Assembly: GCA_018971685.1 (NCBI GenBank)
Contig: JAGXAG010000005.1
Span: 1,842-65,841 of the forward strand
DNA length: 64,000 nt
Reading direction: 5' to 3'
From: Patescibacteria group bacterium
GTDB lineage: Bacteria; Patescibacteriota; Minisyncoccia; Phycocordibacterales; PALSA-1337
Every line of letters starts with the position of its first letter. Within the stretch, counting starts at the first letter, position 1. The position numbers and the translations under genes are program-made. Positions 1,641 through 62,554 of this stretch are shown one piece after another. Below the pieces are notes generated by a model. The model was not told the DNA's origin, ran no database searches, and was given only the letters and a program-made list of their open reading frames with translations.

Positions 1641-1783
1641 GAGAGTAGCGCGGTACTTTGAAAATTAAAAGTAAGTAGAGAATGTAAATGTGCAAGTAAA
1701 CGAAAATATTCCAAATGAGCTGGAAGCGAATATTAAGTAGGCGCATGTAAAAGTGCTTTCTATTTTGTTCCGTTCGCTTATAG

Positions 1784-3722
<1,939 letters not shown>

Positions 3723-3942: not shown

Positions 3943-4292
3943 GTGTTTGACTTTCGATTGTATTAATGGTATCTTGTCACAAGATGAAAACTAGACTTGA
4001 GTTCGTCAAAGCACCGATGGTGGAGATAAGCCCGGTGCCAATCAGTATAAACTTCGAGCCACTTCGGAAAGGGGTCGAAAGACTAATTCCGTCGTGGCGG
4101 ACGATATTCTGGATTGCGGTCGCGGGGTTCGCCACACTGTGTGTGGCCATCTTCGCGGAGTGCTTGAAGAACGAGCATTTTCTGGAGTCAATCAAATACT
4201 GATCAGAGTAACCAATCTCAGATCTACAAGGCACCAAGAACCGCAGGGTGCCTTTGTTTTCTGTCATTATTTATCATATAGTAATGCTTACG

Positions 4293-4332
4293 GACGCGTG
4301 GCGGAATCGATACGCATGTACGCTTGATGAGC
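4293..4332 (+). repeat. Degenerate 5'-half copy of the downstream tRNA-Leu gene (pseudo-tRNA fragment)
   Basis: GACGCGTGGCGGAATCGATACGCATGTACGCTTGATGAGC aligns to positions 2-45 of the tRNA at 4367 (GGCGCGTGGCGGAACTGGTATACGCGTACGCTTCAGGAGC). No T-arm or 3' acceptor follows. Confidence 0.5.
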
Positions 4333-4366
4333 TTAATCAGAGTTCGTTATATATTCGAGAAATAAT

Positions 4367-4448
4367 GGGCGCGTGGCGGAACTGGTATACGCGTACGCTT
4401 CAGGAGCGTATGGAGCAATCCTTGGAGGTTCAAATCCTCTCGCGCCCA
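4367..4448 (+). tRNA. tRNA-Leu (anticodon CAG), type II with long variable arm
   Basis: Hand-folded: 7-bp acceptor GGGCGCG/CGCGCCC, 3-bp D-stem with GG in the loop, anticodon stem TACGC/GCGTA with loop TTCAGGA, 13-nt variable arm, T-arm GGAGG-TTCAAAT-CCTCT, discriminator A. CCA is not encoded. Confidence 0.7.
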
Positions 4449-4540
4449 CATCGGCATGGAGTAGCGGTTAACGAAGATTTTTGATAGTATCTTCTTTGTC
4501 GAAGAAGTGTCGATTTTGGTTCGGAAATATAATACGCAAT

Positions 4541-4613
4541 GCGCGCATAGCTCAGCTGGTAGAGCATTCGACTGATACTCGAAAGGTCCTAGGTTCGACC
4601 CCTAGTGCGCGCA
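4541..4613 (+). tRNA. tRNA-Ile (anticodon GAT)
   Basis: Hand-folded cloverleaf: acceptor GCGCGCA/TGCGCGC, D-arm GCTC-AGCTGGTA-GAGC, anticodon stem TTCGA/TCGAA with loop CTGATAC, T-arm CTAGG-TTCGACC-CCTAG. CCA is not encoded. Confidence 0.85.
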
Positions 4614-4721
4614 CAAATTCGCGAAAGGTTAGTAATCAACGGAAAGGTAAAGACAAAAAGAAAACTTGAAATACAAGACCCGGTCGGGCAATTTTCGCTA
4701 CTTTATTGTACAATATAGACC

Positions 4722-7119: not shown

Positions 7120-7521
7120 ATGTTAGCAATACGACTTCAAAGAACCGGCAGGAAGCACGAACCGACTTTTCGCGTGGTCTTGACCGATTCAAAGAACGGC
7201 CCGAAGAGCGGAAAGTATTTGAAAAACTTGGGATGGTACGATACGCGGCTCAAGAACAAAGCCGAACAATTGAAGACCGATGAAATAAAACACTGGGTAT
7301 CCAAAGGCGCGAAGCTCTCGATCACTTTGCACAATTTTCTGGTAAATCAAAAAATCATCGATGGCAAGAAGTTAAATGCTCTGCCCAAAAAGACGCCGAT
7401 CAAGAAAGAGGTTCCGGCGGAACCGGTGTCGGCACCCGCCGCACCCGTGCCCGTGCCTGCTCCTGTTGAAAAAGCCGCTCACACTTCCGCGCCTGAACAA
7501 GAAACTCCCGCAGTCAAATAA
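7120..7521 (+). CDS. rpsP: 30S ribosomal protein S16 with a Pro/Ala-rich C-terminal extension
   Basis: MLAIRLQRTGRKHEPTFRVVLTDSKNGPKSGKYLKNLGWYD. AAGGTG lies 8 nt upstream of the ATG at 7120. The C-terminal ~50 aa (PAEPVSAPAAPVPVPAPV...) are an extension. Confidence 0.85.
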   Translation: MLAIRLQRTGRKHEPTFRVVLTDSKNGPKSGKYLKNLGWYDTRLKNKAEQLKTDEIKHWVSKGAKLSITLHNFLVNQKIIDGKKLNALPKKTPIKKEVPAEPVSAPAAPVPVPAPVEKAAHTSAPEQETPAVK

Positions 7522-7533
7522 CACTGCGTTCTC

Positions 7534-7695
7534 AATAAACTTCGGCACTTCCTTTTTGTGAGCCTCCGGGACTCATGTCGTTGAATTGCAAGGTTTTGTC
7601 GCTCTCCAATCCGCGTTCGCGACAAAACCTAGCAATTCGTACTCCATTCGAACAGGTCCTCGGCTCACAAAAAGGAAGTGCCGAAGTTTATTGCG
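7534..7695. repeat. Family-A hairpin element, intergenic copy: 32-bp perfect terminal inverted repeat around a ~98-bp structured core
   Basis: Arms are CAATAAACTTCGGCACTTCCTTTTTGTGAGCC (7534-7565) and the exact reverse complement (7664-7695). The core (GGGACTCATGTCGTTGAATTGCAAGGTTTTGTCGC...GCGACAAAACCTAGCAATTCG...AACAGGTCCTC) is homologous to the cores at 32361-32457 and 60565-60661. Confidence 0.65.
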
Positions 7696-7720
7696 ACTAT
7701 TTGAGATAGTGCAGACAAGT

Positions 7721-9186: not shown

Positions 9187-9198
9187 ATGTTTAAATAG

Positions 9199-9262
9199 TA
9201 AATTATAAACAAATTGTAATTTATAATATTTAAAATTTACTTATTATTGTTTGTTTATAATT
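9199..9262. promoter_or_regulatory. AT-rich inverted repeat AAATTATAAACAA ... TTGTTTATAATTT upstream of rpoB
   Basis: Arms at 9200-9212 and 9249-9261. The same pair of arm sequences recurs at 62508-62548 upstream of obg. Confidence 0.4.
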
Positions 9263-9284
9263 TTAAATTTACATTACAACCAAA

Positions 9285-30883: not shown

Positions 30884-30971
30884 TCTCTGAAACAGTTTTT
30901 TACCCGGCGTACTATATGGAGCAGTGCGCCGGCTTTTTGTATTCGACTTTTCCGTTCCGTGGTACAATACT

Positions 30972-33074
30972 ATGCATCAATCGTTCGCGGGAACGGCAAC
31001 CGCATTTAATTCAATGGACGAGAATCGCGTAACATATTTTGCGGAGACAGACGCGCGTAACAAGCGGGTCAAATTTGGCATAAAGAGCAAGGACAGGACC
31101 AAGCATCTGTACGCCATCGGCAAAACCGGCATGGGCAAATCCACCATGTTGGAAAACATGGCCGTGCAAGACATTCAGGCCGGAGAAGGAATGTGTTTCA
31201 TCGATCCGCATGGCAAGACCGCCGACCTGCTCTTGGAATATGTGCCCAAAGAGCGCGTGAACGATGTCATATACATCGCGCCGTTCGATACCGACTTTCC
31301 GATATCGTTCAATGTGCTCGAAAGCGTCGATCCGGACAAGAGGCACTTGGTGGTGTCTGGCCTCATGAGTACATTCAAGAAAATCTGGGTCGACGCCTGG
31401 TCCGCCAGAATGGAATACATATTGACCAACACCCTTTTGGCATTGCTCGAAGCGCCGGGTTCCACGCTTCTCGGCGTGAATAGGTTGCTGTCGGACAAGG
31501 AATACAGGAGAGACATCGTGTCGAAAGTGCAGGATCCGTCGGTCAAAGCTTTCTGGACCAAGGAGTTCGCCAATTACAGCGAACGCATGGCTCAAGACGC
31601 TGTGCCCGCCATCCAGAACAAAGTCGGCCAATTCACCGCGAACCCGCTCATCAGGAACATGATCGGCCAGCCGCAGTCGTCGTTTGATTTCCGCCAGGCG
31701 ATGGATAACAGGAAAATAGTCATTATCAACCTTTCCAAAGGCCGGGTCGGCGACGAGAACATGAAGCTTTTGGGCGGCATGCTGGTGACGAAGATTTATT
31801 TGGCGGCAATGTCCAGGGCCGATACGCCGGATCGTATAGCCAGGACTCTGCCGAACTTCTATTTGTTCGTCGATGAATTCCAGAACTTCGCCAACGCCTC
31901 GTTTGCCGATATTCTTTCGGAGGCCAGGAAGTACAAGCTGAATTTGACGATCGCGCATCAATATATCGAGCAGATGGACGAGGATGTGCGCGCGGCGGTC
32001 TTCGGCAATGTGGGCACGATGATAGCTTTTCGGGTCGGCGCGACCGATGCGGAAGCGCTGGAGAAGGAATTTGCGCCGACTTTCACGATCGAGGATTTGG
32101 TGAATCTTGGATTCACCCAAATTTACCTAAAGTTAATGATCGACGGCCTGACCTCGTCGCCTTTTTCGGCGGTGACTTTGCCGCCGATCGCGCACCCGGG
32201 TTCTTCATTTGTAAAAGAAATTATCGAGGCGTCTAGAACACAATTCGCGCGGCCGCGAGTAATGGTTGAAGCTGAGATAGTGAAATTCCACGAACCGACG
32301 CAGAAATCGGCGCGGTCTGCTATTCCCGCGCCCGCAGGCGAAGCGCTTGCCGGTTCGAGTCTGCGGAACTCGCGTCGTGAAGTTGCCAGGTTTTCGGGCT
32401 CGACAGCGCGACCCGAAAACCTGGCAACTTCTACGCCGCTCAAACAGAGTCCTCGACTCGAACCGGCAAGCGCTTCGCCTGCGGGCGCGGCTGACGCAAG
32501 TACTTCAGTCGCTGCCAATATTTCCACTGATTCCAAAACTTCATCAGCGCCGTCGGCAAAGACGGATACGGTTTCCGAACCCTCTTCGGAGACGGGTTGG
32601 AGACAAAATCCGCATACTACCGACTCCCCGCCGAGAAAAGGCGGCGACGGCGGGCGTCCTGTTGTTCCGCTGTCACCGACCGTGGGTGAGGGAAACCGTG
32701 TTCGTAGAGCCGAAAAGCGCGAAGAGCTTGGACAGCATAACCAACAACATATTTCACTATCGTCGCTCAGTCGCAATCAACCCAAGCGCGACCTGAAGAC
32801 GCAATCGAAAGAGAATGTCAGTCAATTGAGAAACGCCCTGCAAGCCGCGCTCGGCAAGACCGAACGCGCCGCGCCCACTTTCTCGCCGACCGATGCCGCC
32901 GCGTCCGTTCCAGCCACAGCGCCTGCCGCGACAACCCAAAATACAATTGCCTCACAACCCGTACGGCAAAACCAAGCACTTCAAAAAACACCTGAAATTC
33001 CAAAAGTTCCGAAAACCGATAAAGTTCCTGAAGTCCCCGAAGAAGTCTTGAAAAAGGTCTTGAAAGTTGATTGA
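30972..33074 (+). CDS. Soluble VirD4/TraD-like type IV coupling-protein-family ATPase with ~250-aa low-complexity C-terminal tail
   Basis: Walker A AIGKTGMGKST; Walker B FYLFVDEFQNF; LTIAHQYIEQMDEDVRAAVFGNVGTMIAFRVGATDAEALEKEF matches the T4CP C-terminal block. No N-terminal TM. An extended -10 TGGTACAAT lies just upstream. The start is ambiguous (30972 or 31014). Confidence 0.65.
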   Translation: MHQSFAGTATAFNSMDENRVTYFAETDARNKRVKFGIKSKDRTKHLYAIGKTGMGKSTMLENMAVQDIQAGEGMCFIDPHGKTADLLLEYVPKERVNDVIYIAPFDTDFPISFNVLESVDPDKRHLVVSGLMSTFKKIWVDAWSARMEYILTNTLLALLEAPGSTLLGVNRLLSDKEYRRDIVSKVQDPSVKAFWTKEFANYSERMAQDAVPAIQNKVGQFTANPLIRNMIGQPQSSFDFRQAMDNRKIVIINLSKGRVGDENMKLLGGMLVTKIYLAAMSRADTPDRIARTLPNFYLFVDEFQNFANASFADILSEARKYKLNLTIAHQYIEQMDEDVRAAVFGNVGTMIAFRVGATDAEALEKEFAPTFTIEDLVNLGFTQIYLKLMIDGLTSSPFSAVTLPPIAHPGSSFVKEIIEASRTQFARPRVMVEAEIVKFHEPTQKSARSAIPAPAGEALAGSSLRNSRREVARFSGSTARPENLATSTPLKQSPRLEPASASPAGAADASTSVAANISTDSKTSSAPSAKTDTVSEPSSETGWRQNPHTTDSPPRKGGDGGRPVVPLSPTVGEGNRVRRAEKREELGQHNQQHISLSSLSRNQPKRDLKTQSKENVSQLRNALQAALGKTERAAPTFSPTDAAASVPATAPAATTQNTIASQPVRQNQALQKTPEIPKVPKTDKVPEVPEEVLKKVLKVD
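32329..32489. repeat. Family-A hairpin element, in-frame copy inside the T4CP-like gene (32-bp perfect terminal inverted repeat)
   Basis: GCGCCCGCAGGCGAAGCGCTTGCCGGTTCGAG (32329-32360) is the exact reverse complement of 32458-32489. Inner stem GTTGCCAGGTTTTCGGG/CCCGAAAACCTGGCAAC around loop CTCGACAGCGCGA. Encodes ...PAGEALAGSSLRNSRREVARFSGSTARPENLATSTPLKQSPRLEPASASPAG... Confidence 0.7.
32633..32700. repeat. Family-B GC-rich repeat, in-frame copy in the T4CP-like gene
   Basis: ACTCCCCGCCGAGAAAAGGCGGCGACGGCGGGCGTCCTGTTGTTCCGC...CGTGGGTGAGGGAAACC is ~80 percent identical to 58881-58958 in secA. Confidence 0.55.
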
Positions 33075-52941: not shown

Positions 52942-53762
52942 ACGATATCTGCGAAATATCTTTCGACCTTTTTGAACATATATACTCCTGCAACAAGCAA
53001 GATCACACACCCCATGAACGATATTGCCAAAAGAAACCAGTTGATCGGCGCCGTGCCCAAGAGCGCGGCGCGAGCGTTTTGGATGACGCCGGTCATGGGG
53101 TTTATGGCTAACAGTTTGGAATATTTTCCAGCAATCGATGCCGGATATATTACCGGGGTGACAAACAGGAGTATTTGTACGAAGTAAGGTAATACATAAC
53201 GAACATCCCTGTATTTAACATTAATTGCTGCCAGGAATAGGCCGCCGCCGACCGAAGCCATGAATGTGATGACAAGCAATAGCGGTATCATAAGAAGTCC
53301 GGTGAAGCTCGGCATGAACCCGTAATATATCATGAGTCCGACCATGATTATCGCGGCTATGAAGAAATCAACAAGTTGGGTAATGACCGAAGATATCGGC
53401 AATATTAGGCGCGGGAAGTAGACTTTGGTGATCAGGGCCTGATTGCCAACCAATGAATTGGCCGTGCCGGAAAGAGCCGCGGAGAAGAATTGCCAGAATA
53501 ATAGACCTGTGTATACAAAGATTGGATAGGGCACATTGTCAGAGGGTATTTTTGCCAGACCGCCGAAGAAGACCGAAAAGACCACCATAGACATGAACGG
53601 CTGGAATACGGCCCATGCCGCTCCTATAAAGGTTTGCTTGTATCTGACTTTAAGATCACGCCAGGTAAGGAAATATAGTAGCTCCTTGTATATCCATAAC
53701 TCTTTCAGATCCGACAGGTGGAATATTTTCTTGGGGCGGATGACTGTTACTTGTGTGGACAT
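52938..53762 (-). CDS. ABC-2 type polysaccharide export permease (Wzm-like)
   Basis: Six TM helices; LVGNQALITKVYFPRLILPISSVITQLVDF is the ABC-2 signature. Confidence 0.85.
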   Translation of the reverse strand: MSTQVTVIRPKKIFHLSDLKELWIYKELLYFLTWRDLKVRYKQTFIGAAWAVFQPFMSMVVFSVFFGGLAKIPSDNVPYPIFVYTGLLFWQFFSAALSGTANSLVGNQALITKVYFPRLILPISSVITQLVDFFIAAIIMVGLMIYYGFMPSFTGLLMIPLLLVITFMASVGGGLFLAAINVKYRDVRYVLPYFVQILLFVTPVIYPASIAGKYSKLLAINPMTGVIQNARAALLGTAPINWFLLAISFMGCVILLVAGVYMFKKVERYFADIV

Positions 53763-53876
53763 GCGGCTATCCTATCACATTACAAAGTCGTTGTTGAGCT
53801 TTTGTCTGCCATGATATATGATAGTTTCATTACTCTAAGCCGCACGACGATTAGTCGCGGAATTACCATAACGCAC

Positions 53877-56132
53877 ATGACCATCAAAAAAACCACTCGC
53901 TTTGTAACGATCGCCGCTCTCTTCCTCGTCCCCATTTTCGCTCTGATCGTAGCCAACTCGCTCTTTTTCCCGTTTATTACCGGCAAGGCATTCTATTTCC
54001 GCCTCATGGTTGAGATCGCTTTCGCCGCCTGGGTGATTCTGGCTTTTCTTGATGCCAGATACCGGCCGAAGCTGAATGCTCTCACGGTCGGCGTGACACT
54101 TTTTACTGTTGTCGCCCTCATTGCCGACCTTCTGGGCGTGAATCCGATCCGAAGCATGTGGTCCAATTTCGAACGCATGGAGGGCTGGATAACGATCGTT
54201 CATCTGTGGGCGTTCTTCATCGCGGCGGCGGCGGTGTTCGGCGCGGAAGGGGAGGCGAAAAAGTGGTGGCATCGGTTCTTCAATTTCGAATTGGCGGTGG
54301 CTTTTGTCGTCGGGCTTTACGGCTTGGGACAATTGCTCGGCTGGTTCGCGATCCATCAGGGTTCGACCAGGATCGACGCGTCGCTGGGCAATGCGGCGTA
54401 CATGGCGGTTTACATGCTCATGAACGCCGGTTTGGCGGCGTACTTGTTCCTGGCGGAAAAGGCGAAGCGCGCGGCGGCAAAATCGCCGGGCATTTCATTC
54501 ATGGGCTGGATATATATTGTTCTTACCGTACTCTTTTCTTTCCTCCTCTTTGAAACTTCCACTCGCGGCACGATTCTCGGCTTTACCGGCGGACTCATGC
54601 TGGCGCTTTTCCTCTATGCGCTTTTTGCCAAGAATGGATCCAAGCGGTCGCGCATGATCTCAGGCGGCGTCGTGGCGCTCATTGTGATCGCGGGCATCGG
54701 CATTTACGCTTTGCGCAACCAGCCGATCGTCAAGAACAACGAGGTCTTGAACCGCATGACGAGCATTTCCTTGAGCAATACCGAGTCGACGGCGCGCCTT
54801 TATATCTGGCAAATGGCTCTGACCGGCTGGACCGAAAGGCCGGTTTTGGGTTGGGGCCAGGAGAATTTCAACTACATCTTCAACGCCAATTACAATCCGA
54901 AAATGTGGTCGCAGGAGCAGTGGTTCGATCGCGCGCACAGCGTATACTTCGACTGGCTGGTGGCTGGAGGGTTGGTGGGACTCATGGCTTATCTCGCGCT
55001 GTATGTATTGTTGTTGCGCGGAATTTGGAAATCGGGATTTACCATGTCCGAAAAGTGCGCCTTGACCGGACTGGTGGCCGGCTACGCGGTGCACAACATA
55101 TTTGTGTTCGATAACTTGGCGAGCTATGTCTTGTTCTTTACTCTGCTCGGATTCGTTGCGTCGATAAAATCCTCCGCTGCTTTGCGGCACCCCCTTTTGC
55201 AAAGGGGGAATTCATCGCAAGAATCTTTCACTAACGGCGCTTCAACCATAGGCGGAACGAAGGAAGTCAGGCCCGAGATAGTCGAATATGTGGTGGCGCC
55301 GATATCGATCGTCGCCTTGGTTATCGTGATTTTCTTCTTTGAACTGCGCCCATACCAAGCCAATACCGCTCTTATCACCGCTTTGCAATCATGCTCCGGA
55401 CCGACGCCGGACGCTACATTGTTCGACAAGGCGCTTGCCGTGAACACTTATGTTGCCAACCAGGAAATCCGCGAGCAGTCGCTCTCTTGCGCCGGTTCGG
55501 TCATCGGAAGCCAGAGTGCGCCCGGACCGACGAAGCAGGCTTTCTTCCAGTTGGCCGTGAATAATATCCAGGCTCAGATTGCCGCCACGCCGAAAGATGC
55601 GAGGATGTATGTGCTCGGCGGCGGATTCTTGCTGGGTGCGGGACAAAACGCGCAAGCCCTGCAGCTGCTCGTCGACGCGCACGCGCTGTCGCCGGCCAAA
55701 CAGTCGATTGATTTTCAATTGGCGCAAGCGTATTTGAATGCCGGCCAGATACCGGAATCAGTGGCGGTATTGCGGCAAGCCTATGAAGGCGATCCGTCGT
55801 ATGGCGAAGCGCGCTCGGCCTATGCCACCGGGTTGGTTCTGACCGGGCAGGAAAGTTTGGCGCACCAATTGTTCGGCGACGATCCGGCGGTATTCCAGAC
55901 CGAGCAGATGGCGGGCGTATATGCCAACCTGAAGCAATACCAAAAAGCGATCTCGATCTATGTTGCGCTCATCAAAAACAGCCCGACGGATGTCAACTTG
56001 CTTTCCAGGCTTGCGCAAATACAATACGCGGCGGGCATGAAGACGCAAGCGATTGCGACCTTGCGCAGTATTGAGAAGGATCATCCGGAATACAAAGACC
56101 AGATCGAGGCGGCGATCAAGCAGGTGCAGTAG
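53877..56132 (+). CDS. O-antigen ligase/Wzy_C-domain polytopic membrane protein fused to C-terminal TPR repeats (candidate glycan ligase/O-oligosaccharyltransferase)
   Basis: About 12 TM helices with a large loop (Wzy_C-like); the C-terminal ~250 aa carry TPR-like repeats (AQAYLNAGQIPESVAVLRQAYEGDPSYGEA...). The start is taken at the ATG at 53877; the listed 53718 start overlaps Wzm. Confidence 0.65.
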   Translation: MTIKKTTRFVTIAALFLVPIFALIVANSLFFPFITGKAFYFRLMVEIAFAAWVILAFLDARYRPKLNALTVGVTLFTVVALIADLLGVNPIRSMWSNFERMEGWITIVHLWAFFIAAAAVFGAEGEAKKWWHRFFNFELAVAFVVGLYGLGQLLGWFAIHQGSTRIDASLGNAAYMAVYMLMNAGLAAYLFLAEKAKRAAAKSPGISFMGWIYIVLTVLFSFLLFETSTRGTILGFTGGLMLALFLYALFAKNGSKRSRMISGGVVALIVIAGIGIYALRNQPIVKNNEVLNRMTSISLSNTESTARLYIWQMALTGWTERPVLGWGQENFNYIFNANYNPKMWSQEQWFDRAHSVYFDWLVAGGLVGLMAYLALYVLLLRGIWKSGFTMSEKCALTGLVAGYAVHNIFVFDNLASYVLFFTLLGFVASIKSSAALRHPLLQRGNSSQESFTNGASTIGGTKEVRPEIVEYVVAPISIVALVIVIFFFELRPYQANTALITALQSCSGPTPDATLFDKALAVNTYVANQEIREQSLSCAGSVIGSQSAPGPTKQAFFQLAVNNIQAQIAATPKDARMYVLGGGFLLGAGQNAQALQLLVDAHALSPAKQSIDFQLAQAYLNAGQIPESVAVLRQAYEGDPSYGEARSAYATGLVLTGQESLAHQLFGDDPAVFQTEQMAGVYANLKQYQKAISIYVALIKNSPTDVNLLSRLAQIQYAAGMKTQAIATLRSIEKDHPEYKDQIEAAIKQVQ
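55184..55213. repeat. Family-C small hairpin element (CCCCCTTT-TGC-AAAGGGGG) in-frame in the Wzy_C-TPR gene
   Basis: GCGGCACCCCCTTTTGCAAAGGGGGAATTC is the near reverse complement of 60714-60742 in secA. Confidence 0.5.
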
Positions 56133-58237: not shown

Positions 58238-61200
58238 ATGTCATTTTTCGGCAAATTATTGGGCAATACGCAACATACGCAGAGCGTCAAACACTTCGAG
58301 CCTTTAGTAGCGAAAATCAACGCGCTTGAGGAATCTTTTAAGGCGCTTTCGGACCAAGAATTAAAGGCGAAGACGGTTGAATTTCGCAGGCGTTTGGGGG
58401 TAGCGCCATCGGTTTCGCCGCTTCCTGCAGTTGCAGAGGGTGCTCCTATGCAAGCCTCTGTAGAGGCCGTCATCCCCGGTGACATCCTGTCCGAAGCCTT
58501 TGCCGCCGTGCGCGAGGCGGCCAGGAGAACGCTTGGCCAGAGGCATTTTGATGTGCAGCTTATAGGCGGCATGGTCCTCGATTCCGGAGCGATCGCGGAG
58601 ATGAGGACCGGCGAAGGCAAAACGCTCGTAGCGACCTTGTCGGCGTATTTGAATGCTCTTTCCGGCAAAGGCGTCCACATTGTCACTGTCAACGATTATC
58701 TTTCCCGCCGAGATGCTGTGTGGATGGGGCAGATTTACGATTTTCTAGGTTTGACTGTAGGAGTAATAAACCATGAAGCCAGCTTTCTGTACGATTCGAG
58801 CATCGCGCCCCAAGGTGCAGCGGGAACGGATTCTGGACCCTCTTCGGAGGCGGGGGGTGTACCAACTTCACCTACCTCGTACTCCCCGCCGAGAAAAGAC
58901 GGCGCCGGCGGGCGTTCCGTTGTTCCGCCGGCGACGATCGTGGGTGAAGAACCCGTTCCCGCGAAGCCGACAGGACGCGATACCGATGTTCGTGTCGACC
59001 ATAAACTCGACAAGGAGCGTGACGATGTTGGCGCGTTCAAGGTCGTCCACGAATTTTTGCGGCCGTGTACCCGCCGTGAAGCCTATGCCGCCGATATCAC
59101 CTACGGCACCAACAACGAATTTGGCTTCGACTATCTGCGCGACAACCTCGAATATTCTCCGGCCGCTTTGCGCCAACGGCCATTCAACTACGCCATAGTC
59201 GACGAAATCGACTCCATCTTGATCGACGAGGCGCGTACGCCCTTGATCATCTCCGCGCCATCGCGCGACGCCGAGAGCACTTACAAACAGTTCGCCGCGC
59301 TTGTTGTTTCATTCAAGGAAAATGAAGACTATGAAAAAGACGAGAAGAGAAAAGCCATATCGCTTTTGCCGGCCGGCATAGAGAAAGCCGAGAAAGCGCT
59401 CGGCATCGACAATATTTACACCAATGCCGGCATAAAATATGTGCACCATTTGGAGACGGCGGTCAGAGCCAAAGCGCTGTTTAAGCGCGACAAAGAATAT
59501 GTCGTCAAGGACAACCAGATAGTGATCGTCGATGAATTCACCGGCCGATTGCAGCCCGGACGAAGATGGTCGGAAGGATTGCACCAGGCCATCGAAGCCA
59601 AAGAAGGCGTGGTGATACAGCAGGAGTCCAGGACTTACGCCACGATCACATTCCAAAATTTCTTCCGCATGTATCCGAAGCTTTCCGGCATGACCGGCAC
59701 GGCGGCAACTTCCAGCGAAGAATTTTATAAAGTCTACGGCTTGGATGTGTATATGGTGCCGCCGAATGTGCCGGTGGTGCGCGCCGATAAGAACGACCAA
59801 ATATTCAGGACCGAGCCGGGCAAATTCAAGGCCATTGCCAGGAAAGTGAAAGAACTGCACGACAAGGGCCAGCCGGTTCTGATCGGCACGGTGTCGATCG
59901 AGCGCAACGAGCTCTTGTCACAATTCTTGAAAGCCGAAGGCATACCGCATACGATGTTGAATGCCAAGCCGGAATATGCCGAGCGCGAAGGCGAAACGGT
60001 GGCGCAGGCGGGCAAGAAAGGCGCGGTCACGATCGCGACCAACATGGCGGGCCGCGGCGTGGACATCAAGCTCGGCGGCAATCCGAATACCAAGGAAGCG
60101 TATGAAGAAGTAAAACGCCTGGGCGGGCTTTTCGTCTTGGGCACGGAAAGGCACGAAGCGCGGCGCATCGACAATCAGCTTCGCGGGCGATCGGGCAGGC
60201 AGGGCGATCCGGGCGAGACGCAATTCTTCGTTTCGTTGGAAGACACGCTGATGCGAGTGTTCGCGTCGGATACCTTGAAGTCGATGATGGGGCGCCTGGG
60301 CATGGCGGAAGACGAGCCGATCGAGCATCGGCTGATTTCTAAGGCGTTGGAGAGCGCGCAGGAGAAAATAGAGGGTTTCAATTTCGATTCGCGCAAGCAT
60401 GTGCTGGAATTTGACGATGTGATCAATACGCAACGCTCGAGTGTGTATTCGAGGCGCAGGAGATTGCTCTTGGGCAATGTTGACGATGTGGAAAAAGAGC
60501 TGTTTGAGATTTTGGGCTTGAATGACACCGCCGCCTCGCCGGACGGAACATTCTCGGCCGCGAGTCTGCGGGACTCGCGTCGTGAAATTGCAAGGTTTTC
60601 CGGCTCGACAGCGCGACCGGAAAACCTTGCAATTTCAACGCCGCTCAAACAGAGTCCTCGCCTCGCGGCCGAGAATGTTCCGTCCGGCGAGGCGGCGGCT
60701 GACGCGATTGATGGAAATTCTCCCTTTGGAAAAGGGGGTGCTCCGGAGCGAAGCGGAGGGGCGGGGGATTTTGAGTCGGTAATTCAAAAGAAAATCTCCG
60801 AATTCGGACGCGATAACTTCTTGAATGCGGCGCGAATAATATTACTGCAGACGATTGACATGTACTGGGTGGAGCATCTGGAGGTGATGGATTACACCAG
60901 GGGCAGCGTGAATTTGCGGGCGTACGGGCAGAGGGATCCATTGGTGGAATACAAAAAGGAGGGTTTGCGGCTGTTTCGGGAAATGCAAAACGCCGTGCGC
61001 GAGCAGGTTGTGCGCATTTTGCCGAACATCGTGCCGGTCATTCAGGGCCAGGCGGCGCAAAACATTTCATCGAACGCCGCGCCGAAGAATTCGGTTCTAA
61101 CTCCCGAAATGCGCGAAGTGCACGAAAACGCGCGAATCATCGGATCGCAAGACGGCTCCGGCAAAGCGGTTCAGTCTGCCAAAAAGGAGCCGCAGTTTGG

Positions 61201-61267
61201 CCGGAATGATCCCTGCTGGTGCGGCAGTGGGAAAAAGTACAAGAAGTGCCATGGGAAGAATGTCTAA
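58238..61267 (+). CDS. secA: Preprotein translocase ATPase SecA with C-terminal zinc-binding tail and two repeat-element-derived inserts
   Basis: LHAMRTGEGKTLVATL (Walker A) and VTIATNMAGRGVDIKLGG (motif VI); the C-terminus is CWCGSGKKYKKCHG. Foreign inserts at 58881-58958 and 60528-60698. Confidence 0.97.
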   Translation: MSFFGKLLGNTQHTQSVKHFEPLVAKINALEESFKALSDQELKAKTVEFRRRLGVAPSVSPLPAVAEGAPMQASVEAVIPGDILSEAFAAVREAARRTLGQRHFDVQLIGGMVLDSGAIAEMRTGEGKTLVATLSAYLNALSGKGVHIVTVNDYLSRRDAVWMGQIYDFLGLTVGVINHEASFLYDSSIAPQGAAGTDSGPSSEAGGVPTSPTSYSPPRKDGAGGRSVVPPATIVGEEPVPAKPTGRDTDVRVDHKLDKERDDVGAFKVVHEFLRPCTRREAYAADITYGTNNEFGFDYLRDNLEYSPAALRQRPFNYAIVDEIDSILIDEARTPLIISAPSRDAESTYKQFAALVVSFKENEDYEKDEKRKAISLLPAGIEKAEKALGIDNIYTNAGIKYVHHLETAVRAKALFKRDKEYVVKDNQIVIVDEFTGRLQPGRRWSEGLHQAIEAKEGVVIQQESRTYATITFQNFFRMYPKLSGMTGTAATSSEEFYKVYGLDVYMVPPNVPVVRADKNDQIFRTEPGKFKAIARKVKELHDKGQPVLIGTVSIERNELLSQFLKAEGIPHTMLNAKPEYAEREGETVAQAGKKGAVTIATNMAGRGVDIKLGGNPNTKEAYEEVKRLGGLFVLGTERHEARRIDNQLRGRSGRQGDPGETQFFVSLEDTLMRVFASDTLKSMMGRLGMAEDEPIEHRLISKALESAQEKIEGFNFDSRKHVLEFDDVINTQRSSVYSRRRRLLLGNVDDVEKELFEILGLNDTAASPDGTFSAASLRDSRREIARFSGSTARPENLAISTPLKQSPRLAAENVPSGEAAADAIDGNSPFGKGGAPERSGGAGDFESVIQKKISEFGRDNFLNAARIILLQTIDMYWVEHLEVMDYTRGSVNLRAYGQRDPLVEYKKEGLRLFREMQNAVREQVVRILPNIVPVIQGQAAQNISSNAAPKNSVLTPEMREVHENARIIGSQDGSGKAVQSAKKEPQFGRNDPCWCGSGKKYKKCHGKNV
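58881..58958. repeat. Family-B GC-rich repeat, in-frame copy in secA
   Basis: ACTCCCCGCCGAGAAAAGACGGCGCCGGCGGGCGTTCCGTTGTTCCGCC...CGTGGGTGAAGAACCCGTTCC; flanked by GCGGGAACGG (58819-58828) / CCGTTCCCGC (58953-58962). Confidence 0.55.
60528..60698. repeat. Family-A hairpin element, in-frame copy inside secA (about 37-bp perfect terminal inverted repeat)
   Basis: CCGCCGCCTCGCCGGACGGAACATTCTCGGCCGCGAG (60528-60564) is the reverse complement of 60662-60698. Inner stem ATTGCAAGGTTTTCCGG/CCGGAAAACCTTGCAAT with the same loop CTCGACAGCGCGA as the 32329 copy. Encodes ...SAASLRDSRREIARFSGSTARPENLAISTPLKQSPRLAAENVPSGEAAA... Confidence 0.7.
60714..60742. repeat. Family-C small hairpin element, in-frame copy in secA (inverted relative to 55184-55213)
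   Basis: GAAATTCTCCCTTTGGAAAAGGGGGTGCT versus reverse complement of 55184-55213 GAATTCCCCCTTTGCAAAAGGGGGTGCC. Confidence 0.5.
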
Positions 61268-62507: not shown

Positions 62508-62548
62508 AAATTATAAACAATTAGTAAATCGTAAATTGTTTATAATTT
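62508..62548. promoter_or_regulatory. Perfect 15-bp inverted repeat AAATTATAAACAATT-N11-AATTGTTTATAATTT embedding TATAAT 8 nt upstream of the obg ATG
   Basis: Same arm sequences as the rpoB-upstream repeat at 9199-9262. TATAAT at 62541-62546. Confidence 0.45.
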
Positions 62549-62554
62549 ACTCAA

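Follow-up and report, generated by a model that had tools for sequence, protein, structure and literature searches.

The subject of this study is a palindromic repeat, family B, that lies in frame in two genes of a 64,000-nucleotide stretch (the window, to whose positions all coordinates without a locus label refer) from a Patescibacteria group bacterium (contig JAGXAG010000005.1, assembly GCA_018971685.1). Both genes are on the + strand. The first, at 30924..33074, encodes a type IV secretion system (T4SS) coupling-protein-like ATPase (TrwB/TraG/DUF87; T4CP-like hereafter) and carries one copy of family B (B1) and one copy of a second repeat, family A (A1). The second, at 58238..61267, is secA; it carries family B copy B2 in one loop (loop 1, aa ~195-243), and a second loop (loop 2, aa ~765-845) houses family A copy A2 and a third small hairpin. 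The closest relatives of both host proteins all come from Patescibacteria metagenome-assembled genomes (MAGs), and one of these, GCA_028865255.1, holds 100% identical partial copies of both. For the full-length SecA of the window, a protein look-up returned no exact record and only this 100% identical partial protein. The ATPase domain of the T4CP-like protein spans aa ~48-376, and A1 and B1 both lie in its hypervariable C-terminal linker.

What is the extent of the shared repeat? The window contains precisely two occurrences of the 18-mer ACTCCCCGCCGAGAAAAG (32623-32640 and 58881-58898), against an expectation of none from 100 shuffles. The original prediction had placed the secA copy correctly at 58881-58958; its start for the T4CP-like copy, 32633, was a 10-nt slip, and the motif begins at 32623. 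With that start corrected, the predicted DNA identity of about 80% is borne out (62/78 = 79.5%, 32623-32700 versus 58881-58958). The peptides quoted for the two copies, SPPRKGGDGGRPVVP and SPPRKDGAGGRSVVP, do lie in the host reading frames, and the sequences said to bracket the secA copy, GCGGGAACGG and CCGTTCCCGC, are found at 58820-58829 and 58953-58962, respectively. The predicted length was too short, and the conserved branched fold and the wider occurrence in Patescibacteria had gone unnoticed. The repeat is about twice as long and extends further upstream: B1 and B2 align without gaps over 127 nt at 77% identity (32563-32689 versus 58821-58947), and the structured unit comprises 146 nt in both (32561-32706 and 58819-58964). 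A covariance model of the family scores B1 at 123.6 bits (E ~1e-26) and B2 at 135.7 bits (E ~1e-29), and with all filters off it finds nothing else above 17 bits in the window. On its reverse strand B2 reaches just 16 bits, and thus the orientation of family B is well defined.

In computed minimum free energy (MFE) structures, B1 (32561..32706, -69.4 kcal/mol, z -3.8) and B2 (58819..58964, -78.7 kcal/mol, z -4.0) adopt one common branched-hairpin fold, in which one strand is predicted to form a three- or four-way junction. The core is ~135 nt long (32566-32701 in B1 and 58824-58958 in B2 by the covariance model) and the element 143-195 nt long when the closing stem is included. In B1, the 5' arm of the closing stem P1 (32562..32584), which includes the conserved GAACCC, pairs with 32682-32705, and weaker pairing continues outward (GTCGGC ... 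GCCGA). Between the arms lie, at 32585..32639, an invariant CUCUUCGGAG block, the P3 hairpin, in which 32594-32602 pairs with 32617-32626, and a conserved CGAGAAAAG junction, followed by the 16-bp P4 hairpin at 32640..32681; the segment 32682..32705 then holds the conserved GUGGGUGA and the 3' arm of P1. The corresponding stems of B2 are P1 58820-58842/58940-58962, P3 58849-58859/58880-58890 and P4 58898-58914/58921-58939.

Across the family, P1 terminates in GAACCC...GGGUGA, P3 has the form GCG(N)4-6 ... (N)4-6CGC with a loop of 20-30 nt, the purine strand CGAGAAAAGAC sits between P3 and P4, and P4 measures 10-16 bp, after which GAUCGU leads back into P1. The conserved junction strands are GAACCC, CGAGAAAAGAC and GAUCGUGGGUGA. 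The CUCUUCGGAG block (CUC-UUCG-GAG) could form a C(UUCG)G mini-hairpin or pair with GAGAA, and because it never varies the two alternatives cannot be told apart. With its flanks counted, P1 usually reaches 30-45 near-perfect base pairs. The arms are recognizably homologous within a subfamily that includes B1 and B2 (...GC(NNN)GCGAACAUGGNUUCCGAACCC...). As for terminal inverted repeats, copies share only the junction-proximal part of P1; the outer arms vary between copies and differ by mirrored indels and substitutions (compare L005 and L011). For near-perfect, indel-mirrored arms of this kind, the simplest account would be correction templated by the hairpin, or template switching.

Is family B a repeat of nucleic acid, or do the two proteins have in common a module or low-complexity linker that they inherited or exchanged as protein sequence? 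B1 and B2 are both in frame and share a codon phase, and the encoded peptide is rich in proline, serine and glycine like linkers, which speaks for a module. However, the two peptides are only 48% identical, against 77-80% for the DNA, and the 43 nucleotide differences are spread 14/16/13 over codon positions 1/2/3 and amount to 25 non-synonymous versus 4 synonymous codon differences. This even spread and the non-synonymous excess contradict a conserved protein module and favor a nucleic-acid repeat; no protein-level selection is seen between B1 and B2. Of ten stem positions that differ between the copies, five are compensated on both sides. In other genomes the element also occurs in the opposite orientation and encodes another peptide, its DNA being read on the opposite strand in six other hosts, and its base pairs covary strongly. 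Finally, a profile of three family B peptides matched, among 1.84 billion cluster representatives, only this genome's T4CP fragment and low-complexity noise, a search that is uninformative on distribution because clustering at 50% hides insert-bearing members. We therefore regard a protein module as highly improbable, in agreement with the original prediction, which had preferred a DNA repeat to a shared ancestral domain.

Family B recurs in other genomes. Our searches combined patterns run against GTDB species genomes and JGI/ENA metagenomes, the covariance model, and secA orthology. When one genome per GTDB species was scanned with a two-block pattern, 12 loci emerged, ten of which are Patescibacteria with the family B architecture (labeled Saccharibacteria, Paceibacterota or "Patescibacteria group"). 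L004 (Omnitrophota) and L008 (Dehalococcoidia), which make up the rest, were discarded as chance pattern matches, the covariance model giving no score and 18.6 bits, respectively. A looser three-block scan of the JGI/ENA metagenomes returned 12 loci (L013-L024), mostly from groundwater, with Hainich wells H41, H43 and H51 among the sources, nine of them duplicates of the first set and three new. A covariance model built from 12 copies added a copy at L009:5541 that fits neither pattern, and a copy reached through secA orthology alone (P0003/L025) scores 124.9 bits and is one base off the junction consensus. In total there are 17 distinct copies, two in the window and 15 elsewhere, all in Patescibacteria MAGs or in contigs with patescibacterial-type host genes, and they span several Patescibacteria classes. 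Exact-block patterns miss divergent members of the family. Among phages and plasmids (IMG/VR, INPHARED and PLSDB) there was no match to family B, and Rfam 15 gave only spurious weak matches (in the window, in four loci at E<=1 and in the B1 region at E<=10). The lack of Rfam matches rules out all known ribozymes and introns, and a hammerhead is ruled out by inspection of the junction strands. Full-text literature searches returned no description of such elements in Patescibacteria, a group for which candidate phyla radiation (CPR) is another name.

The same distribution bears on the idea that the palindromes are fold-back chimeras of assembly or amplification. Multiple displacement amplification or mis-assembly can create palindromes, and short-read contigs of the same organism do break at the family A palindromes. 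Nevertheless, an independent MAG contig from NCBI (L026) carries an identical B2, and homologous copies with compensatory changes are found in many independent MAGs and metagenomes; an artefact is thus exceedingly improbable.

Covariation across the 17 copies is extensive. Standard pairs fill 95.1% of the pair cells, compared with 71.5% when partners are shuffled and 38-45% when they are slid by one to three columns. Changes on both sides are found in 28 of the 40 pairs (153 cells), and none of 500 shuffles reaches the observed value on any measure. P1, P3 and P4 all covary, and the junction helices never vary. The fold also distinguishes the two strands. On the element's + strand, all modeled pairs together contain 26 G·U/U·G and 4 A·C/C·A combinations, and the bias is alike in host-sense (16:3) and host-antisense (8:1) copies; likewise, in 12 of 16 copies the + strand has the more stable fold of the two strands. 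Because the bias is independent of host orientation, the preserved fold is that of the element's own strand and not of the host mRNA, which points to single-stranded DNA (ssDNA) or an element-sense RNA, for example a transposition intermediate. The idea that the + strand always lies on the lagging-strand template finds no support, as local GC skew on the element strand, a noisy measure over 8 kb, is positive in nine and negative in eight of the 17 rows. We tentatively entertain, as a possible though doubtful reading, that family B is not junk but a new class of nucleic-acid element defined by its structure, that its own strand must fold as ssDNA or element-sense RNA in whichever direction the host gene runs, and that it has long been maintained at orthologous sites in replication and repair genes. 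It would then be the substrate of a structure-specific ssDNA recombinase or retro-element, or a cis-acting signal in DNA metabolism, and its arms would make it a flip-able coding cassette.

Where does family B insert? Sixteen of the 17 copies lie within long open reading frames (ORFs), ten in sense and six in antisense orientation to the host gene, and one is intergenic, ~100 nt upstream of a uvrD start. By NCBIfam and Pfam, the hosts are confirmed to be SecA (loop 1 in window copy B2 and L025; loop 2 in L017), UvrA (L003, L007 and L012), PcrA/UvrD (L005, L009 and L011), RecG at two sites (site a in L006 and L014; the other in L002), DnaE (L001), PolA (L010), ArgS (L019) and the T4CP-like ATPase (window copy B1). 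Seven of the ten independent sites are in proteins of DNA replication, repair or translocation (DnaE, PolA, RecG twice, UvrA, UvrD and T4CP-like), in a small sample and against a background of ~6% of coding length that is a rough estimate from general knowledge; none of the ten is in a hypothetical or surface protein. The homologous copies at no fewer than ten non-homologous sites show that family B has moved. Beside the PolA copy, at L010 ~7371-7409, lies a partial second copy of the family B 3' end (GTGGGTGAAGGAACCATAT; host-sense peptide MVPSPTSPRDSANMASSPT), which hints at an insertion that was nested or in tandem, or at a remnant of template switching.

Orthologous genes show what was inserted. 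RecG site a is empty in L002 (RISQRQKTNQLYFSNP) and longer by 61 and 64 aa in L006 and L014, respectively; similarly, SecA loop 1 is just a few residues long in P0004 and P0006. These empty sites show that both arms belong to the insertion. They also dispose of a target-derived inverted duplication, in which one arm would be ancestral host DNA, since both arms are extra relative to the empty RecG and SecA sites. The matches to host profiles are typically broken in two at the insert, and the variability of the sites bears out the earlier suggestion that these genes tolerate inserts. Alignment to Thermotoga maritima SecA (3DIN), from which we placed the loops, leaves residues 180-243 and 759-848 of the window SecA without aligned counterpart; an AlphaFold2 model (27-sequence alignment, mean predicted local distance difference test score 47) was too poor for mapping. 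Across 26 SecA orthologues, the number of extra residues in the two loops varies between none and over 60, and several unrelated peptides derived from repeats lie in them. All T4CP-like homologues (577-770 aa in total) have a conserved ATPase followed by a hypervariable low-complexity linker rich in Pro, Ala and Ser. Pfam recognizes only the host domains in the T4CP-like protein and in the SecA homologues.

All 16 genic copies hold the host frame open across 140-195 nt, and each is read in frame +0 or -2 relative to CCC-UCU-UCG. These are the only stop-free frames, with the addition of +1 in the window copies. Such uniform reading through the element bears on whether it might be removed before the mature protein is made, as an intron, an intein or a translationally bypassed segment would be. 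Family B interrupts conserved housekeeping genes of the kind favored by inteins, and its RNA would be highly structured. Yet open frames in 16 of 16 genic copies, with only two stop-free frames in use, would be needless if the element were excised; there is no Rfam intron or ribozyme match, and 48 residues without a match to a Hint domain cannot be an intein. Removal is accordingly a reading to which we give very little credence.

The open frames and the inverted arms raise a further alternative, an intragenic inverton in which recombination between the arms flips the core and toggles the peptide between two versions. The segment lies within a coding sequence between inverted repeats and codes in both orientations: frames +0 and -2 are both open in most copies. 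Furthermore, in orthologous loops of UvrA and UvrD the element points one way in some related genomes and the other way in others, and the orthologous copies that are most alike (L003/L007, 80%) have opposite orientations. Against this, opposite orientations have been seen only across species and not as polymorphism within a population, no invertase is known, palindromy alone tends to open the mirror frame, and two antisense copies (L002 and L012) have a stop in the other frame. The opposite orientations fit either flipping by arm recombination or re-insertion into a hot spot, between which they do not distinguish. We consider an inverton distinctly unlikely.

How old are the insertions? Copies at orthologous sites (three in UvrA, three in UvrD, two at RecG site a and two in SecA loop 1) share 59-80% identity in their cores, close to the 60-75% of the flanking host DNA, values compatible with insertions that would be old and vertically inherited. 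This persistence favors the main rival of our preferred interpretation, namely that family B is a functional structured nucleic acid retained by the host and kept by selection at each locus, for instance as a cis-acting DNA or RNA signal in replication and repair genes or as a strand-specific ssDNA signal; it would then be more than a parasite. Orthologous sites in diverged genomes keep their stems and junction at this level of flank identity, covariation is strong, the fold is strand-specific whatever the orientation of the host gene, seven of ten independent sites are in DNA-handling proteins, and the cUUCGg block is presumably a stable tetraloop of the RNA type. On the other hand, both orientations occur in the same orthologous loop of UvrA and of UvrD, so a function in the host mRNA cannot account for the antisense copies. 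SecA and ArgS are also among the hosts, many close orthologues lack the element, and no promoter or partner has been identified. In addition, template switching can yield near-perfect stems without selection (PMC6649704). On balance we judge a host-retained function unlikely.

We propose, as the probable though by no means certain interpretation, that family B, hitherto undescribed, consists of small, non-coding mobile palindromes, confined to Patescibacteria, that are non-autonomous and defined by their structure, are tolerated in disordered loops and resemble the Rickettsia palindromic elements (RPEs). The whole hairpin would be the inserted unit and would land in either orientation. A genic copy could persist only if it offered a stop-free frame in register, a length that preserves the host frame, and a position in a solvent-exposed loop or disordered linker; to judge from the open frames, the insert would be translated as a harmless hydrophilic peptide. 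The folded single strand, whether ssDNA or element-sense RNA, may be recognized by a trans-acting enzyme, hairpin-templated correction or template switching may keep the stems near-perfect, and copies may flip through recombination between their arms.

Several observations weigh against this proposal. The copies at orthologous sites are undecayed, their stems paired and their junction intact, a state easier to reconcile with locus-by-locus retention by selection than with a repeat that is purely selfish and dead on arrival. Copy number is low, with two copies per 64 kb in the window and one or two per 8-kb locus elsewhere, and only ~17 distinct copies emerged from roughly 600 Gb plus the JGI metagenomes. 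Across the 17 copies, no consistent direct repeat, target-site duplication or conserved target is visible at the hairpin base. Among annotated genes within flanks of up to 8 kb, no transposase, recombinase or reverse transcriptase adjoins any copy, the neighbors include no IntI or TnpA(Y1), and no related autonomous insertion sequence (IS) was seen among the window genes near B1. Finally, the invariance of the junction is partly built in by the search patterns. The conservation of the junction is nonetheless real, given two copies obtained without patterns and conserved positions outside the pattern blocks.

Family A is indeed present in the same two genes, as had been predicted, and has a third, intergenic copy. 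A1 (32326..32490, + strand), 165 nt or 55 codons long, forms a rod-like hairpin whose 36-nt arms are perfect and enclose a conserved core of ~100 nt; A2 (60528..60698, + strand) measures 171 nt (57 codons) and has 37-nt perfect arms; the intergenic A3 (7530..7696, + strand) has 35-nt arms. The hairpin comprises ~72 bp, the lengths of A1 and A2 are both multiples of three, and their cores are 91% identical over 105 nt. The arms, 35-37 nt long and 97-100% complementary, are unrelated in sequence between copies. Unrelated arms around cores that are 91% identical rule out divergence: either the arms were made at insertion or the core entered the tip of a pre-existing hairpin. The further suggestion that families A and B travel together is not upheld. 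They are 73 nt apart in the T4CP-like gene, in the order A-B, and ~1.57 kb apart in secA, in the order B-A, and family A is absent (nhmmer) from all fetched loci that hold the 15 other family B copies, two full secA genes with family B among them. In the short-read MAG of the same organism (GCA_028865255.1; P0001, P0121, P0241 and the end of L026), contigs end or start within family A copies, breaking at window positions ~32304-32330 and ~60686. Its SecA is truncated at aa 816 and its T4CP-like protein at aa 460, with a C-terminal fragment that begins inside A1.

The window secA alone holds B2, A2 and the third small hairpin. The latter (CCCCCTTTTGCAAAGGGGG type) lies at 60709-60758 in loop 2 and, in reverse-complement orientation to it, at 55164-55215 in a Wzy_C/O-antigen-ligase-like ORF (53718-56132); both copies are in frame and read GNSPFGKGGAPERSGGAG and SSAALRHPLLQRGNSS, and a similar SPFEKGGGRSEAEAGGF peptide occurs in loop 2 of the SecA orthologue P0035. 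SecA genes of other CPR genomes carry still other repeat peptides. For example, GGALPRSSLRSSSGDSxHPSxGAKNS is found in loop 1 of P0005 and in loop 2 of P0004, and VIPAKAGIQGETIxSSGKTLDSRxxGND in both loops of P0065. The two SecA loops are landing pads for many hairpin families. The C-terminal linkers of the T4CP-like homologues P0123 and P0172 likewise contain repeat-type peptides (e.g., SSPRKRGSAGSITFDSSRARIPASAGMT in P0123). Locus L007 holds, at 1936-2026, a perfect-looking hairpin of ~90 nt, both strands of which match a miRNA precursor model; it is probably a further hairpin element of a CPR genome.

Other features of the window include AT-rich palindromic repeats (AAATTATAAACAA...) at 9192-9271 and 62508-62551, which are intergenic, mutually inverted copies and may be promoter or terminator modules. 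The 16S rRNA gene (1780-3702) is 1923 nt long against a model of 1533 positions, with an insertion of ~390 nt, and is followed by tRNA-Leu(CAG) at 4367-4449 and tRNA-Ile(GAU) at 4541-4614 rather than by a 23S gene. Just upstream of tRNA-Leu, a truncated tRNA duplicate at 4292-4335 (44 nt) is 75% identical to the 5' half of that gene.

How does family B compare with known systems? The closest parallel is provided by the RPEs, palindromic repeats of ~150 bp, non-coding on their own, that lie in frame in unrelated housekeeping genes of Rickettsia and give extra translated peptides where the protein fold can accommodate them (Ogata et al. 2000, 2002, as summarized in PMC10969869 and PMC6649704). 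Rickettsia conorii has 44 of them, and they are reported to lose repeat identity over time (PMC6649704). Like RPEs, family B is palindromic, forms a stable hairpin and sits in frame in unrelated genes of a reduced-genome, host-dependent lineage. The differences, in a comparison by description, are that family B is low-copy, spread across several Patescibacteria classes and inserted in both orientations; that it has a conserved asymmetric branched junction, heavier covariation and a strand-specific fold; and that it shows no visible decay, its stems being near-perfect at old orthologous sites. To our knowledge, RPEs have no counterpart outside the Rickettsiales. [quoted passage not shown] Family B is similarly short, non-autonomous, hairpin-forming and able to make in-frame fusions, but it lacks both the family-wide terminal inverted repeats and the direct target-site duplications of classical MITEs, and no parent IS is known for it.

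Long, near-perfect coding palindromes are also found in mitochondrial genes of Nematomorpha, for which template switching or conversion has been proposed (PMC6649704). As in family B, these are inverted repeats inside translated genes whose arm identity seems to be actively maintained; in contrast to family B, an insertion in variable loops with a conserved asymmetric core, both of their arms encode conserved protein regions and they share no core. Family B also recalls folded ssDNA sites in its strand-specific fold with covariation and in its 26:4 ratio of G·U to A·C pairs independent of gene orientation. Integron attC sites, the ends of IS200/IS605 elements and the forked attP hairpin of CTX phage are folded ssDNA recognized less by sequence than by structure, with covarying stems and one active strand. 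For family B we found, among annotated neighbors, no IntI, TnpA(Y1) or Xer partner and recognized no core or cleavage motif, no motif scan having been made. We know of no attC, IS200/IS605 or CTX attP site embedded in frame in a housekeeping gene. Inteins have a similar host range (DnaE, PolA, helicases, UvrA and SecA); unlike them, family B has no protein-splicing domain, lies in variable loops instead of conserved motifs and is conserved at the nucleic-acid level.

Finally, these elements have practical consequences. The palindromes break short-read assemblies of CPR genomes and yield "partial" proteins; in marker genes used for phylogenomics, they raise the apparent divergence of proteins and the number of lineage-specific indels. 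Anyone looking for the enzyme or process by which family B is moved or maintained has concrete starting points in its conserved junction, its strand-specific fold and its bias toward DNA-handling genes. In-frame "selfish" palindromes have so far been regarded as essentially a peculiarity of Rickettsia; an unrelated and much better structured family in CPR genes, the same genes holding two or more other hairpin families as well, suggests a wider phenomenon. Insertions of this kind may be a route by which bacteria with reduced genomes gain loop insertions in SecA, UvrA, UvrD, RecG, DnaE and PolA.

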